DNA from: an uncultured Verrucomicrobiae bacterium
GTDB taxonomy: Bacteria > Verrucomicrobiota > Verrucomicrobiia > Chthoniobacterales > JAFAMB01
Reading direction: 5' to 3'
NCBI GenBank assembly: GCA_963808535.1
Contig: CAWEGF010000023.1
Span: 66,715-130,714, forward strand
Length of the DNA: 64,000 nt
The notes below the pieces were generated by a model, which had not been told where the DNA came from, did no database searches, and saw only the letters and a program-made list of their open reading frames with translations. Below are positions 10,304-56,545 of this stretch, in pieces; positions within the stretch are counted from its first letter, which is position 1; every line of letters begins with the position of its first letter. The position numbers and the translations under genes are program-made.

Positions 10304-10394
10304 CGAGGCAGGCACGAGGGGATGTTTCCCAGAGGGACGACTAGAAAGTAGGCCGCAATTTTCGTCGGTAATCGGCGTTTTAGAATTTGGTTTC

Positions 10395-10640
10395 GTCCCG
10401 GAGGGACAATGCGATCGTAGCCTGGCACGAAGTGCCTGGAAAAGGCCTCTCGAAAGGACCGTCCCGTAGGGTACGGTATGATTCGTATGATCGGACGCAG
10501 CTAATGCCGGGTATTTCTCGCCGTATGGACGGTTTCTGAACTTGCGAGATAGCGTCATACCGTACCCTACGGGACGGGACCATTTTCCTCATGTTCCAGG
10601 CACTTCGTGCCTGGCTACGATCATGCTGTCCCTCCGGGAC
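10395..10640. repeat. family B hairpin-chain element, copy 1 (246 bp, MITE-like)
   Basis: Left end is GTCCCGGAGGGAC..GCCTGGCACGAAGTGCCTGG..GTCCCGTAGGGTACGG and the right end is its reverse complement. Each block is itself a mini-palindrome. Second copy at 41076-41305. A family-C-like terminus CCTTATCTCTGCGCCAT follows at 10654-10670. Confidence 0.85.
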
Positions 10641-10805
10641 AAAGAACAAGAACCCTTATCTCTGCGCCATGCGGGTCAGTAGCCAATACATGAGACTCAA
10701 ATCACACCGGAGATCGGAACTTTCCTCCGCCTCTGATGCCCCCTTTATTTGAAAAGCCAAGGAGGATAATCGAGGACGACGACGATTTTGAAGCTGAGGC
10801 TTCAA

Positions 10806-39587: not shown

Positions 39588-39660
39588 CTGTCATAAATCG
39601 CCTCGAATCGATTCGGTCAAAGGGATCTTGGGTTAGCCTCCCTATATGGACCGAGGGCCT

Positions 39661-39945
39661 GCCCCGCAGGGGCTACAGAATTCAGCCCCGGGTTTCAACC
39701 CTGGGAACCCTCAAAAATAAACGGTTCGCCCTCATAAGGACCAGAGGTGCGGGTACCAGATGAAGCTCGCACCTATCGCCGCGCAAAAGTCAGGGTGTAA
39801 TTGGGACGTGTTACAATTGGACCATCGGACCCCGCTTTCGCCTTGTTCGGACGTCCGATCTGGCGCCCCCTTCAGGGCGCGTCGCTCTTGGTGGACGATT
39901 CCCAGCGTTGAAACCCTGGGCTGAGCGCTGTAGCCCCTTCGGGGC
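39661..39945 (+). repeat. family A structured element, copy A1 (285 bp)
   Basis: Bounded by GCCCCGCAGGGGCTACAGAAYTCAGCCCNGGGTTTCAACCCTGGGAA and its inverted complement. The internal core is shared with the other copies. The right flank carries a family C arm ending GCGCCATT at 40021-40028. Confidence 0.9.
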
Positions 39946-40085
39946 ACAAAAGAAAGGCCTCAGCCCGAGGATTGCGGCCTACAGCCTTTTCGGAGCAAAA
40001 TCCTCCCATGCCTTACCTTCGCGCCATTTTTGTCTGACCTCATTCCTTCGTACTGGTTTAGGGTCTATATATGGACCGAGTGCCT

Positions 40086-40349
40086 ACCCCGCAGGGGCTA
40101 CAGAACTCAGCCCAGGGTTTCAACCCTGGGAACCCTCAAATAAACGGTTCGCCCCGACGAAGGGGCGAGAGATGTGGGTACCAGATGAAGCTCACATCTT
40201 TTGCTGCGCAAAAGTCAGGGTGCAAAATTGGGACGTGTTACAATTGGAGCATCGGACCCCGCTTCGCCTTGTTAGGACGTCCGATCTTGGCGCCCCCTTC
40301 AGGGCGCGTCGCTCTTGGTGGACGATTCCCATGGTTGAAACCCTAGGCT
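40086..40349 (+). repeat. family A element, copy A2, 5' part (interrupted by family C insertion at 40350)
   Basis: The same termini and core as A1, but the right terminus stops at ..TTGAAACCCTAGGCT. It resumes at 40772 (see the next features). Confidence 0.9.
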
Positions 40350-40771
40350 GAATGGCGCGAAGATAAGGAGAATTTGGGATGGGCTCTATAGATAAAACCA
40401 AGAACCTGCCCCGCAGGGGCTACAGAACTCAGCCCAGGGTTTTAACCCTGGGAATCCTCAAAATAAACGGTTCGCCCTGAAGGGGCGAGAGATGCGGGTA
40501 CCCGATTAAGGTCGCACCTATTGCCGCGCAAAAGCCAGAGTGCGCAACTGTGCGACAATTGGACCATCGAACCCCACTTCCCCCCTTGTTAGGACGTTCG
40601 ATCTGGCGCCCCTTCAGGGCGCATCGCTCTTGGTGAACGATTCCCAGGGTTGAAACCCTGGGCTGAGTTCTGTAGCCCCTGCGGGGCATAAAACGAAGAC
40701 CTCAGCCCTAGGATTGTGGCCTACAGACCTTTCGGAACAAAATCATTCTATTCCTTAACTTAGCGCCATTC
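40350..40771 (+). mobile_element. family C non-autonomous element, insertion C1 (422 bp), carrying family A copy A3
   Basis: Termini are GAATGGCGCGAAGATAAGGAG... and ...CCTTAACTTAGCGCCATTC (imperfect inverted repeats). It is flanked by a perfect 11-bp direct repeat AACCCTAGGCT (40339-40349 and 40772-40782). Removing the element plus one repeat restores an intact family A terminus. Confidence 0.85.
40408..40687 (+). repeat. family A element, copy A3 (280 bp), inside insertion C1
   Basis: Full termini and core. The loop of the internal AGATGCG/CGCACCT hairpin has diverged while the stem is kept. Confidence 0.9.
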
Positions 40772-40805
40772 AACCCTAGGCTGAGTTCTGTAGCCCCTGC
40801 GGGGC
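40772..40805 (+). repeat. family A element, copy A2, 3' end (continuation of 40086-40349)
   Basis: AACCCTAGGCTGAGTTCTGTAGCCCCTGCGGGGC is the right-terminus remainder, beginning with the duplicated 11-mer. Confidence 0.85.
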
Positions 40806-40946
40806 ATAAAACAAAGGCCTCAGCCCGAGGATTGCGGCCTACAGCCCTTTCGTCGGAGCAAAATCATCCCAAGCCTTATCTTCGCCAATCTGGTCTGACC
40901 CCATTCCTTCGTACTGGGTTAGCCTCTCTATATGGACCGAGGGCCT

Positions 40947-40980
40947 GCCCCGCAGGGGCTTCAGAATTCAGCCCAGGGTT
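40947..40980 (+). repeat. family A element, copy A4, 5' end (interrupted by family C insertion at 40981)
   Basis: GCCCCGCAGGGGCTTCAGAATTCAGCCCAGGGTT is the left terminus, cut after AGCCCAGGGTT. Confidence 0.85.
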
Positions 40981-41422
40981 GAATGGCGCTAAGTTAAGGG
41001 TAGTTTGAGATGTTTTTGCCCTGAAGAATCTTGCTCACGCCCTCCCTAGAAGCCGTTGGAACCGTCTGCAAGCCCGTCCCGGAGGGACAGACCGATCGTA
41101 GCCTGGCACGAAGTGCCTGGGAGAGCACCACTCCAAAAGAACCGTCCCGTAGGGTACGGTATGATCGGGCGCAGCTAATGACGTTCTCGATCGATTCGTG
41201 CTTACACCTGAAAGAATCACACCGTACCCTACGGGACGGATCTTTTGGGGTGGTACTCTCCCAGGCACTTCGTGCCAGGCTACGATCGCATCGTCCCTCC
41301 GGGACTTTTCAAACTTTCAAACAAGCTTTAGCTAGGGAAGAGAACTTGAAATTTGAGCGGGATTTTGCAGAGAAGCCAGGGCAAAATAAATCGCCTACGT
41401 CCTCCTTATCTTCGCGCCATTC
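40981..41422 (+). mobile_element. family C non-autonomous element, insertion C2 (442 bp), carrying family B copy 2
   Basis: Termini are GAATGGCGCTAAGTTAAGGG... and ...CCTCCTTATCTTCGCGCCATTC. It is flanked by a perfect 11-bp direct repeat AGCCCAGGGTT (40970-40980 and 41423-41433). Removing it restores an intact family A left terminus. Confidence 0.85.
41076..41305. repeat. family B hairpin-chain element, copy 2 (230 bp), nested in C2
   Basis: The same inverted termini as 10395-10640 (GTCCCGGAGGGAC..GCCTGGCACGAAGTGCCTGG..GTCCCGTAGGGTACGG). The central part is only partly similar. Confidence 0.85.
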
Positions 41423-41680
41423 AGCCCAGGGTTTCAACCCTGGGAACCTTCAAAATCAACGGTTCGCCCTGAAAGGGCGAGAGATCCGGGTATTAGATGA
41501 AGCTCGCACCTATCGCCGCGCAAAAGTCAGGGTGCGCAATTGGCGTGTTACAATTGGACCATCGGACACCGCTTCCGCTTGTTAGGACGTTCGATCTGGC
41601 GCCCCTTCAGGGCGCGTCGCTCTTGTTGGACGATTCCCAGGGTTGAAACCCTGGGCTGAGTTCTGTAGCCCCTCCGGGGC
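41423..41680 (+). repeat. family A element, copy A4, 3' part
   Basis: Starts with the duplicated AGCCCAGGGTT, then the core and right terminus. It shares diagnostic variants (..CTTCAAAATCAACGG.., GATCCGGGTATTAGATG) with copy A5. Confidence 0.9.
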
Positions 41681-41813
41681 ACCAAACAAACGCCTCAACC
41701 CAAGGATTGTGGCCTATAAGTTTTCGGAGCACAATCCTCCCAAGCCTTATCTTCGCCAATCTGGTCTGACCCCATTCCTTCGTACTGGGTCTCTCTATAT
41801 GGACCGAGGGCCT

Positions 41814-42108
41814 GCCCCGCAGGGGCTTCAGAATTCAGCCCAGGGTTGAGCCCAGGGTTTCAACCCTGGGAACCTTCAAAATCAACGGTTCGCCCTGAAA
41901 GGGCGAGAGATCCGGGTATTAGATGAAGCTCGCACCTATCGCCGCGCAAAAGTCACGGTGCGCAATTGGCGTGTTACAATTGGACCATCGGACACCGCTT
42001 CCGTCTGGTTAGGACGATCGATCTGACACCCCCTTCAGGGCGCGTCGCTCTTGTTGGACGATTCCCAGGGTTGAAACCCTGGGCTGAGTTCTGTAGCCCC
42101 TCCGGGGC
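41814..42108 (+). repeat. family A element, copy A5 (295 bp) with 12-nt footprint-like duplication
   Basis: Full termini and core. It contains AGCCCAGGGTT-G-AGCCCAGGGTT at 41837-41859, exactly at the position where C2 sits in the sister copy A4. Confidence 0.9.
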
Positions 42109-42511
42109 ACCAAACAAACGCCTCAACCCAAGGATTGCCGAGTGCAGCTTCTCGCTACAGACAATTCCAACTCCGTTGGAATTTTAAGTTACTGCCTTCG
42201 GCGATCAAGGCCGTCCATAGCGCAGTCTGCTGGAGGATTAGCAAGCTGACTCTCCTGACCTGCGCTGGATCTTTCGTTCCATTTACCACCACCGATCAAC
42301 GCGTTATGAAAAAGCCTGAAACTTTAGGAATCAGATCTCGTTGTAACCAACTGACAGCAAAAACCACAGCCGCCTCGGCGGCATCCCTCAAGACCGATAT
42401 AAACTTAGCAACCCAATAATACAGATGAAAATTGTAACCAACATTCTAAAAACATACGGTAATAACACCGCTGCCCTCACTACTCCGACGTTTGCAACTT
42501 TTTCGAATAAC

Positions 42512-55444: not shown

Positions 55445-55520
55445 GGTACTTTTTTGAATAAGACGCTGCATTCCCGCTGAGTTGCGAAAAAGGATCATGC
55501 GCCTGAGGCCTTTGTTTTGT

Positions 55521-55802
55521 GCCCCGCAGGGGCTACAGAACTCAGCCCAGGGTTTTAACCCTGGGAATCGTCCACCAAGAGCGACGCGCCCTGAAGGGGC
55601 GCCAGATCGAACGTCCTAACCAGGTGGAAGCGGTCGGATGGTTCAATTGTCGCACGTCCCAAGTGCGCACCCTGACTTTTGCGCGGCAAAAGGTGCGAGC
55701 TTCATCTGGTACCCGCATCTCTCGCCCCTTCAGGGCGAACCGTTTATTATAAGAGTTCCCAGGGTTGAAACCCTGGGCTGAGTTCTGTAGCCCCTGCGGG
55801 GC
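55521..55802 (-). repeat. family A element, copy A6 (282 bp), inverted relative to A1-A5
   Basis: The same termini. The internal core is the reverse complement of the 39.6-42.1 kb copies. Confidence 0.9.
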
Positions 55803-56020
55803 AAGCCTCGGTCCATAGATAGAGCGTAACCCAGGGTTGAAGATACCACGATGGGGACAGATCCAAGTTGCAGTTGGGGAATCTTCGAAATGGGACAGAC
55901 CCCTGTGAGGGCGCTCAGATTGGGGACAGACCCGAATGGCGCGAGGTAAGGTTTAGGATGATTTTGCTCCGAAGGAAGGGGCTGTCGGCCACAATCCTCG
56001 GGTTGAGGCCTTTGTTTTGT

Positions 56021-56306
56021 GCCCCGCAGGGGCTACAGAACTCAGCCCAAGGGTTTTAACCCTGGGAATCGTCCACCAAGAGCGACGCGCCCTGAAGGGG
56101 TCGCCAGATTCGGAACGCGTCCTTACCGAGGTGGAAGCGGTCGGATGGTTCAATTGTCGCACGTCCCGATTGCACACTCTGACTTTTGCGCGGCAAGAGG
56201 TGCGAGCTTCATCTGGTACCCGCATCTCTCGCCCTTTCGGCGAACCGTTTATTTTGAGGTTCCCAGTATTGAAACCCTAGGCTGAGTTCTGTAGCCCCTG
56301 CGGGGC
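56021..56306 (-). repeat. family A element, copy A7 (286 bp), inverted relative to A1-A5
   Basis: Same as A6. It is preceded by an inverted family C arm with terminus GAATGGCGCGAGGTAAGG at about 55935-55952. Confidence 0.9.
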
Positions 56307-56545
56307 AAGCCCTCGTGTCCTTAGATAGAGCCTAACCCAGGAGATCGATGTCATTGTCCCGGCCGACGATCCCAAGGCGGAGCGGTTTTAGACTCGACCC
56401 GCAGCCGAGTCGACGATCGAAGACTTAAGGGCAGCTTGCAAAATAGAAGCGAAATTCTACCTGCAAAGACGCGGCAACGCGCAGATCGAGTTCCATTCGA
56501 ATCTGCGCGCCGCTTCCACCCCGAGTCGGTAACAGTTTCTAAAAG

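Follow-up and report, generated by a model that had tools for sequence, protein, structure and literature searches.

The 64,000-nucleotide stretch of DNA from an uncultured Verrucomicrobiae bacterium analysed here (the window) holds a nest of short repeats at approximately 39620–42140, between the 2-isopropylmalate synthase gene (leuA) and a small open reading frame (ORF). Within this nest, two inserts with common termini, C1 and C2, each interrupt a copy of another repeat, family A, and the locus raises the question of what kind of element C2 is and what draws it to its site. A preliminary description, made from the sequence alone, had suggested that it is a shell element (family C) that carries variable cargo and specifically targets the terminal hairpin of another mobile element. 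The analysis presented below leads to a different answer, namely that C2, like C1, is probably a miniature transposable element with terminal inverted repeats (MITE) derived from an insertion sequence (IS) of the IS4 subgroup of the IS4 family, with sequence-selective target choice. It reflects the known palindromic target preference of its transposase family and is not a new kind of element.

C2 spans positions 40981–41422 on the plus strand and has the appearance of a non-autonomous, MITE-type derivative of an IS4-subgroup insertion sequence. Its left terminal inverted repeat, GAATGGCGCTAAGTTAAGG, lies at 40981–40999 (plus strand) and fits the IS4-subgroup end signature, and its right terminal inverted repeat lies at 41404–41422 on the minus strand, where it reads GAATGGCGCGAAGATAAGG; on the plus strand the element ends in CCTTATCTTCGCGCCATTC. 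Together they form a 19-bp inverted repeat in which 17 of 19 positions match and two are mismatched. The element is flanked by two identical copies, with no mismatch, of an 11-bp target-site duplication, AGCCCAGGGTT, at 40970–40980 and 41423–41433 (both on the plus strand). The left copy is the outer arm of hairpin 1 in the left terminal repeat of the host copy, A4, and the right copy is followed by TCAACCCTGGG, which is the loop and inner arm of the same hairpin. The 11-mer is internally palindromic at four of its five base pairs, and the probability of an 11-bp flank identity arising by chance is approximately 2e-7. Coordinates, termini and duplications all hold on re-examination as first described. 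Deletion of C2 together with one copy of the duplication leaves an intact A core of 283 bp that is 97.5% identical to the neighbouring copy A5, the other A pairs being 83–92% identical. The C-type terminus pattern has six matches in the window versus 0.05 expected, and AGCCYAGGGTT has 18 versus 1.55 expected, both beyond what chance would give. The interior of C2 consists of a 230-nt hairpin repeat (family B) plus approximately 210 nt of spacer, and the sole ORF across it (41031–41585) extends beyond the element into the A repeat. With a length of 442 bp, 19-bp inverted repeats, an 11-bp duplication and no transposase by tblastn, C2 has the properties of a MITE; it lacks the passenger coding sequence of a mobile insertion cassette (MIC) of the MIC231 type. 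No complete further copy of C1 or C2 was present among all loci fetched for comparison (designated L with a number in the following), in which the matches were to termini, A modules and B arms only.

C1 lies at 40350–40771 on the minus strand within the right terminal repeat of A2. It is 422 bp long and has both C termini, which bound an A core (40407–40688). Its duplications, AACCCTAGGCT, are found at 40339–40349 and 40772–40782, and its deletion restores an A core of 289 bp. C1 carries the termini of C2 turned the other way along the chromosome, and relative to the A terminal repeat the two inserts agree in position and orientation, both sitting after AGCCYAGGGTT with the TAAGTTAAGG end facing the outside of A. 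The observation that the two duplications fall at one and the same position of the A hairpin, once in the right (A2) and once in the left (A4) terminal repeat, is therefore correct. That C1 and C2 arose by independent insertion of elements with common termini follows from a one-base difference between the duplications (C versus T; AGCCCAGGGTT versus AGCCTAGGGTT), from their unrelated interiors and from the identity of only 88% between the host A copies. Segmental duplication had been named as a circumstance that would overturn this conclusion, and the perfect direct duplications and differing interiors speak against it. The proposal of variable cargo stands only to the extent that the interiors do differ; they represent different MITE families with the same ends, not the cargo of one shell. 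The possibility that C is simply the genuine end of family A was also considered; it holds in part, for C1 and the degenerate right ends of all A units, and fails for C2, the interior of which is unrelated.

A scan for GAATGGCGCKAAGWTAAGG covered one genome per species. The C terminus occurs in at least 118 genome contigs; among the matches listed, most are from Verrucomicrobiota, Lentisphaerota and Kiritimatiellia and some are from Gammaproteobacteria, Cyanobacteria and Bacteroidota, and many of them lie at contig ends, as expected of a repeat. Pairing of ends within loci yielded more than 20 elements with perfect 11-bp duplications and sizes of 82–450 bp and 1,485–1,860 bp; in two elements (L069 and L111) the duplication is seemingly 10 bp. 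In L050, C-type ends bound a 1,860-bp element with an ORF of 493 residues, which scores 228.6 bits with the NCBIfam model NF033592 (IS4 family transposase; cut-off 115), matches Pfam DDE_Tnp_1 (PF01609), carries the Y(2)R(3)E(6)K signature as YFQRWSVELHFREIK, and is 28% identical over 377 residues to InsG of Escherichia coli IS4 (E = 8e-33). Of the 19 positions of the C terminus itself, 15 agree with the E. coli IS4 end TAATGCCGATCAGTTAAGG, the two ends of that element being TAATGCCGATCAGTTAAGG and TAATGCCAGTCAGTTAAGC, with the direct repeat ATCTTGGTTCTG on its flanks.

Members of the IS4 subgroup have the end signature -AATR--------WTW----, duplicate 10–13 bp and are 1,400–1,650 bp long (De Palmenaer et al. 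2008, PMC2266710). In GAATGGCGCTAAGTTAAGG, AATG occupies positions 2–5 and TTA positions 14–16, as in this signature; the 11-bp duplications of C1, C2 and the related elements lie within the subgroup range, about one helical turn; and the full-length relative in L050 has a single ORF for its DDE transposase, in which Y(2)R(3)E(6)K is present. It is because of the terminus signature, the 11-bp duplication and the cognate transposase in full-length relatives that we consider C a probable MITE of an IS4-subgroup insertion sequence, and with ends of this type, bounding an IS4-family transposase in those relatives, it is not a novel shell element. The broad phylogenetic distribution is also shared with the subgroup. 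C2 departs from typical members in having no transposase, and the full-length relatives depart from them in size (1.49–1.9 kb versus a typical 1.4–1.65 kb) and in the low identity of the transposase to InsG.

The proposal that the insertion machinery is selective in its target is borne out by the 11 nt outside 188 termini, collected with up to four substitutions allowed in the terminus. The duplicated 11-mer is a pseudo-palindrome with the consensus GGGTCWGACCC, and the counts at positions 1–11 are G118, G132, G119, T79/C55, C153, A90/T66, G146, A71/G56, C119, C111 and C94/T53. The window 11-mer agrees with the commonest base at positions 2, 5, 6 and 7 and has the second commonest at the others, the runner-up bases spelling AGCC-(A)-GGTT around the common C-W-G. 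The IS in L050 is located at GGGTCAGTCAA, and a copy in L113 with a 100% identical transposase abuts AGCCCTGGGTG, so that one enzyme type takes both target classes. Full-length elements are also found at the A-type hairpin position, in L096, L164 and L156; the element in L096 has the duplication AGCCCTGGCTC/AGCCCTGGGTC, followed by TCAAGCCTGAG. No earlier description of the target logo GGGTCWGACCC / AGCCCWGGGTT was found in the accessible literature. As a separate observation, the region 1760–1840 of L113 has two full-length IS4-subgroup elements back-to-back with exactly 11 bp (AGCCCTGGGTG) between them; L050 comes from a different metagenome-assembled genome, and the L113 contig is labelled Thermoleophilia, which may reflect a binning error or a recent transfer.

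The recognised target is this 11-bp pseudo-palindromic sequence, and neither the hairpin nor the mobile element as such. The genome-wide flank analysis suggested in the preliminary description was run on the termini of other genomes and supports a sequence preference and no hairpin preference: only 3 of the 184 termini of the unbiased genome set have a partner arm at a distance of up to 40 nt, from which it follows that the sequence is recognised and not the hairpin. The contrary reading, in which the transposase recognises an extruded hairpin or cruciform, or a single-strand hairpin, of the A terminus, draws on the fact that C1, C2 and a putative excision footprint in A5 (see below) all fall within the outer arm of a stable hairpin, and that a GC hairpin and linker stand directly upstream in 42 of 82 metagenome junction contexts. 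The suggested folding check did confirm a stable fold, the 22-mer reaching −8.7 kcal/mol and the 48-nt module −13.9 kcal/mol as single-stranded DNA; however, the structure is not needed for targeting. The duplicated 11-mer is itself a palindrome, and the duplication covers one arm and has its centre away from the loop. A site with no hairpin, GGGTCAGTCAA, is used by the same IS, and AGCCCAGGGTT is used without the A hairpin, directly after TGTGTATAA in L130, L166 and L169 and between apparently unique flanks in L144 and L182. Insertion into the inner arm is also seen, at TTCCCAGGGTT in L133. The window itself has C-type ends at canonical, non-hairpin targets, namely GGGTCAGTAGC (10673), GGGACAGACCC (55923) and TGGTCTGACCC (40891 and 41762). 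Nor is the orientation of the ends fixed: next to the outer half, L054 and L108 present the GAAGATAAGG-type end and the window the TAAGTTAAGG-type end. We consider structure-specific targeting improbable, and the proposal that C specifically targets the terminal hairpin of another mobile element is not sustained. Recognition of the sequence predicts a hot spot at GGGTCAGACCC.

The arrangement seen in the window recurs elsewhere. The exact junction between AGCCYAGGGTT and GAATGGCGC was found in 91 metagenome contigs from soil and peat, with approximately two expected by chance (our own estimate, for a 20-nt pattern). When genome and metagenome loci are pooled, C termini flanked by CCCWGGG occur in 82 distinct upstream contexts, about half of which have the GC hairpin and linker of an A-type module, with hairpin sequences that vary widely. 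Direct duplications like that of C2, followed by TCAACCCTGGG or TACCCTGG, are found in L153, L165, L131, L141, L177 and the L149 group. Of 79 soil-metagenome termini, 24 also have a CCCWGGG motif 63–79 nt inside the element end (mode 64), where it comes after GAATGGCGC..AAG.TAAGG, approximately 20 nt and then the GCCCCGNAGGGGC hairpin; the fixed position at approximately 64 nt indicates that the target-bearing module is a native subterminal part of many MITEs.

It could thus be argued that the junction between the A outer half and C is part of a larger composite repeat or segmental duplication and that C1 and C2 are copies by descent. Besides the module of GC hairpin, linker and AGCCCWGGG at its fixed distance inside C ends, such a reading would accommodate the identical truncated C/A junction that makes L103 and L074 copies of one composite, the elements with mirrored flanks in L054, L186 and L198, and, in the window, a 54-nt inverted repeat that takes in each C end together with the A outer half. 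Descent is nevertheless quite improbable for C1 and C2, marginally more so than recognition of a structure, as both are flanked by perfect direct 11-bp duplications and an A core of normal length is left when either is taken out. Seven paralogous A cores carry the target site unoccupied, and A5, the closest relative of A4, has the site and not the element. The differences between C1 and C2 in duplication, interior and host copy set out above apply here as well.

The IS3-family elements IS1397 and ISKpn1 target repeated extragenic palindromes (REPs). IS110-type elements have, to our knowledge, neither terminal inverted repeats nor long duplications. A site-specific recombinase or IS110-type element homing into palindromic repeats, suggested by the resemblance of the position-specific insertion into a repeated palindrome to REP-targeting ISs (IS110-family ISPpu9; PMC12288879), is excluded with near certainty by the 19-bp inverted repeats and 11-bp duplications of C and by the DDE IS4-family transposase that C termini bound in the full-length relatives. 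The likeness to the REP-targeting ISs lies in the use of repeated short palindromes as preferred landing sites; they differ in that other enzymes are at work, in having no 11-bp duplication and, for IS110, no inverted repeats, and here the partner arm is not needed.

Several possible traces of excision and rearrangement are associated with such sites. In A5, exactly at the position of the C2 site, residues 41837–41859 (plus strand) read AGCCCAGGGTT-G-AGCCCAGGGTT, that is, two copies of the duplication plus one nucleotide. This 11+1+11 pattern recurs in L126 (an empty site), L050, L135, L164, L165, L170 and L172, and in L050 it takes the form GGGTCAGTCAA-T-GGGTCAGTCAA directly before the IS. 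In all sequence analysed, a 1-nt spacer is the mode among tandem CCCWGGG-type 11-mers (8 of 13), and it is also the mode for upstream 11-mer copies beside termini (9 of 16). The pattern suggests excision that keeps both copies of the duplication and one filler base, followed by re-use of the site, and its recurrence hints at excision and then end-joining in bacteria. A P-nucleotide rule for the filler (A after ...GGGTT, T before AGCCC...) was tried and rejected, as A was observed three times, G twice, C once and T once and no single rule applies. In L054 (5871–6220), L186, L198 and L133, AGCCCAGGGTT is found on one side and its reverse complement, with a mirrored outer half or hairpin, on the other side. 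These mirrored flanks could possibly have arisen through two insertions in both modules of one A copy and subsequent recombination or, alternatively, could belong to an A-type shell with a C element inside. Finally, L168, L170 and L209 contain 25-bp remnants of fused ends, GAATGGCGCGAAGATA joined to GTGCCATTC and GAATGGCAC joined to TATCTTCGCGCCATTC, between two 11-mers, an arrangement that would point to imprecise internal deletion or excision.

The reading of C2 as an IS4-subgroup MITE inserted at a preferred sequence has to be set against a number of observations that weigh against it. At 7 of its 11 positions, AGCCCAGGGTT departs from the main consensus, and flanks of the CCCWGGG type are a minority in the unbiased genome set, where they account for only 9 of 184 termini. 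A shift in preference specific to the lineage and the sheer abundance of such sites in the A repeats cannot be separated as explanations for their use in the window. The metagenome scan was selected for the junction and its 91 contigs accordingly speak for recurrence, not for enrichment, and the A-type module at a fixed distance in many C ends means that some of the junctions elsewhere may be inherited. The inverted rather than direct 11-mer flanks of L054, L186, L198 and L133 are not the product of a simple insertion. Lastly, no transposase of the IS4 type was found by tblastn in the 64-kb window.

Nesting is a recurrent property of these elements, with nested arrangements in L193, L152, L134, L175 and L054 and back-to-back ends exactly 11 nt apart in L074, L113, L055, L006 and L066. 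In our reading, nests grow largely by self-insertion within one element superfamily, each element bringing targets with it and each insertion duplicating the one it used. The suggestion that targeting explains how such nests grow is upheld insofar as target selectivity is combined with regeneration of the target at each insertion; self-nesting within one superfamily accounts for much of the targeting.

The closest precedent for this behaviour is IS231A, with which C shares the 11-bp duplication and the palindromic target, the main consensus obtained here fitting GGGN5CCC; the IS231A target is GGGNNNNNCCC (Table 1 of PMC2577343). IS231 has been found inserted into an inverted repeat of Tn4430 (PMC5604178), and MIC231 elements are transposase-less derivatives with the same ends and varied interiors that are mobilised in trans (PMC6199540), so that insertion into the repeat of another element and the existence of transposase-less derivatives with the same ends are further points of likeness. 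A MIC is defined by inverted repeats of the parent IS around one or more passenger coding sequences (PMC6199540), and whereas MIC231 carries protein-coding passenger genes, C2 has only the hairpin repeat. The likeness is one of behaviour only: the ends of the IS231 subgroup start with CAT (CAT-------AA--TAA---) and those of C with GAATGG, the hosts of IS231 are Firmicutes (Bacillus cereus group), and the second target class found here, CCCWGGG, does not fit GGGN5CCC. Staggered-cut palindromic target behaviour has been tabulated for IS231A, Tn10 and Tn5 (PMC2577343). C resembles the transposons treated there in that the motif is symmetric about the centre of the duplication, has no fixed orientation and includes hot spots that are repeatedly used, and differs from them in that the duplication holds the whole recognisable motif, so that two full targets result from an insertion and the build-up of tandem and nested arrays is favoured. 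Among members of the IS4 subgroup, some display 'spectacular apparent insertion specificity' (De Palmenaer et al. 2008, PMC2266710).

The family-B element within C2 (41076–41305) is a near-perfect hairpin of 230 nt with 90-nt arms that are 91% complementary, and its folding energy is −111.8 kcal/mol (z = −21). There is a second B copy at 10385–10642. Eleven nt past it, at 10654–10672 on the minus strand, is a degenerate C-type terminus, CCTTATCTCTGCGCCATGC, with three mismatches, which abuts the canonical-type target GGGTCAGTAGC (10673–10683); no left C-type end was recognisable for this B-containing unit (10385–10683). Relatives of B adjoin C-type ends in L054, L074, L103, L015 and L071, and because the arrangement of B plus a C end is conserved across loci, we regard 'C-B' as a MITE family of its own.

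The host of C2, A4, is a plus-strand family-A core at 40946–41681 made up of the segments 40946–40980 and 41434–41681, with a match to Rfam RF01687 (Acido-Lenti-1) at 41636–41681 (42.7 bits). The A cores are bounded by inverted modules of 46–73 nt, each comprising a GC hairpin, a linker and a CCCAGGGTT-TCAA-CCCTGGG hairpin, and each A unit has a degenerate C-type right end approximately 64 nt beyond the core. RF01687 has six matches in the window, at 40407–40452, 40643–40688, 41636–41681, 42064–42109, 55520–55565 and 55758–55803, all of which are inverted terminal modules of the approximately 285-bp family-A repeat and score 39.2–42.7 bits, above the 37-bit gathering threshold. Further matches are found in L191 and L198. 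In contrast to Acido-Lenti-1 as an RNA, the motif comes in the window as inverted pairs with a spacing of approximately 230 nt; the pairs delimit a repeated DNA element and are used as a target by a transposon, an arrangement that speaks for a DNA repeat rather than a small-RNA gene. No C-type terminus was found in the flanks of the Acido-Lenti-1 Rfam seed (paper supplement), so that the module also occurs without C. It may be that the Rfam family describes a module of mobile DNA rather than an RNA gene.

Those A units that have no left C end share the boundary TGGGTTAG, located at 39629, 40054, 40915 and 41795 and, on the reverse strand, at 55806–55835 and 56308–56340. This boundary falls within the conserved subterminal TTTGGGATG motif of C-type ends, and the sequences upstream of it differ between the two clusters. 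The second cluster, at 55500–56340, consists of two A units in reverse orientation. One of these has a C-type terminus, GAATGGCGCGAGGTAAGG, at 55934–55951 on the plus strand, abutting the canonical-type target GGGACAGACCC (55923–55933). The spacer beside this end contains three GGGACAGACCC-like motifs (55854, 55892 and 55923), which are repeated canonical targets, and comparable repeated target-like motifs precede ends in L010, L018, L019, L055 and L118.

With regard to the surroundings of the nest, homologues of LeuA put the organism among Chthoniobacterales/Terrimicrobiaceae-like Verrucomicrobiota; the best named ones are approximately 80% identical, and soil metagenome proteins reach 92–94%. 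None of six orthologous leuA loci (L119–L124; LeuA 89–92% identical) has the nest. Other genes lie directly after leuA in these loci, the downstream gene order differs from that of the window, and they contain no C, A or transposase match, only a B-like fragment in L119, so that they offer no empty-site comparison for C2. As the nest is missing from the leuA loci of these relatives, it is a recent, lineage-specific accretion.

The course of events that these features suggest would be as follows. A full-length copy assumed to reside elsewhere in the genome would encode a DDE transposase that bears the Y(2)R(3)E(6)K signature. Acting in trans, this enzyme would bind the 19-bp terminal inverted repeats and excise the element by a cut-and-paste reaction. 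The two 3' ends would then be joined to target phosphates staggered by 11 bp, and repair of the gaps would give rise to the 11-bp duplication. The transposase presumably acts as a symmetric multimer and would prefer an 11-bp pseudo-palindrome with a central C-W-G, the best target being GGGTCWGACCC, with AGCCCWGGGTT also accepted as a second class. Every terminal module of family A has exactly such an 11-mer as the outer arm of its hairpin 1, so that the A repeats would offer many good targets, and with the target duplicated at each insertion the site would stay attractive, which could lead to back-to-back and nested elements.

A bolder reading, which we put forward only tentatively and consider unlikely on balance, is that of a widespread IS4-subgroup clade with a dedicated transposon-in-transposon lifestyle, in which the hairpin module is a selected safe-haven beacon and not a passive passenger. 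The MITEs may carry the Acido-Lenti-1 double hairpin approximately 64 nt inside their ends, one arm of it being an optimal landing site for their own transposase. The elements may pile up in harmless nests in which the 11+1+11 excision regenerates two targets, and may recombine into chimeras with mirrored flanks that could be mobilised by two machineries. If this reading is true, an Rfam small-RNA (sRNA) family would be a component of mobile DNA.

Ordinary transposon biology explains the nest, namely a sequence-selective IS4-type transposase and a repeat with many acceptable palindromic targets. For the annotation of genomes of the PVC group and of soil metagenomes, the terminus GAATGGCGCKAAGWTAAGG flags a very common group of ISs and MITEs that breaks assemblies, and the target logo, GGGTCWGACCC with AGCCCWGGGTT as the second class, can be used for calling insertions. 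At least in this genome, the Acido-Lenti-1 "sRNA" is the terminal module of a DNA repeat.

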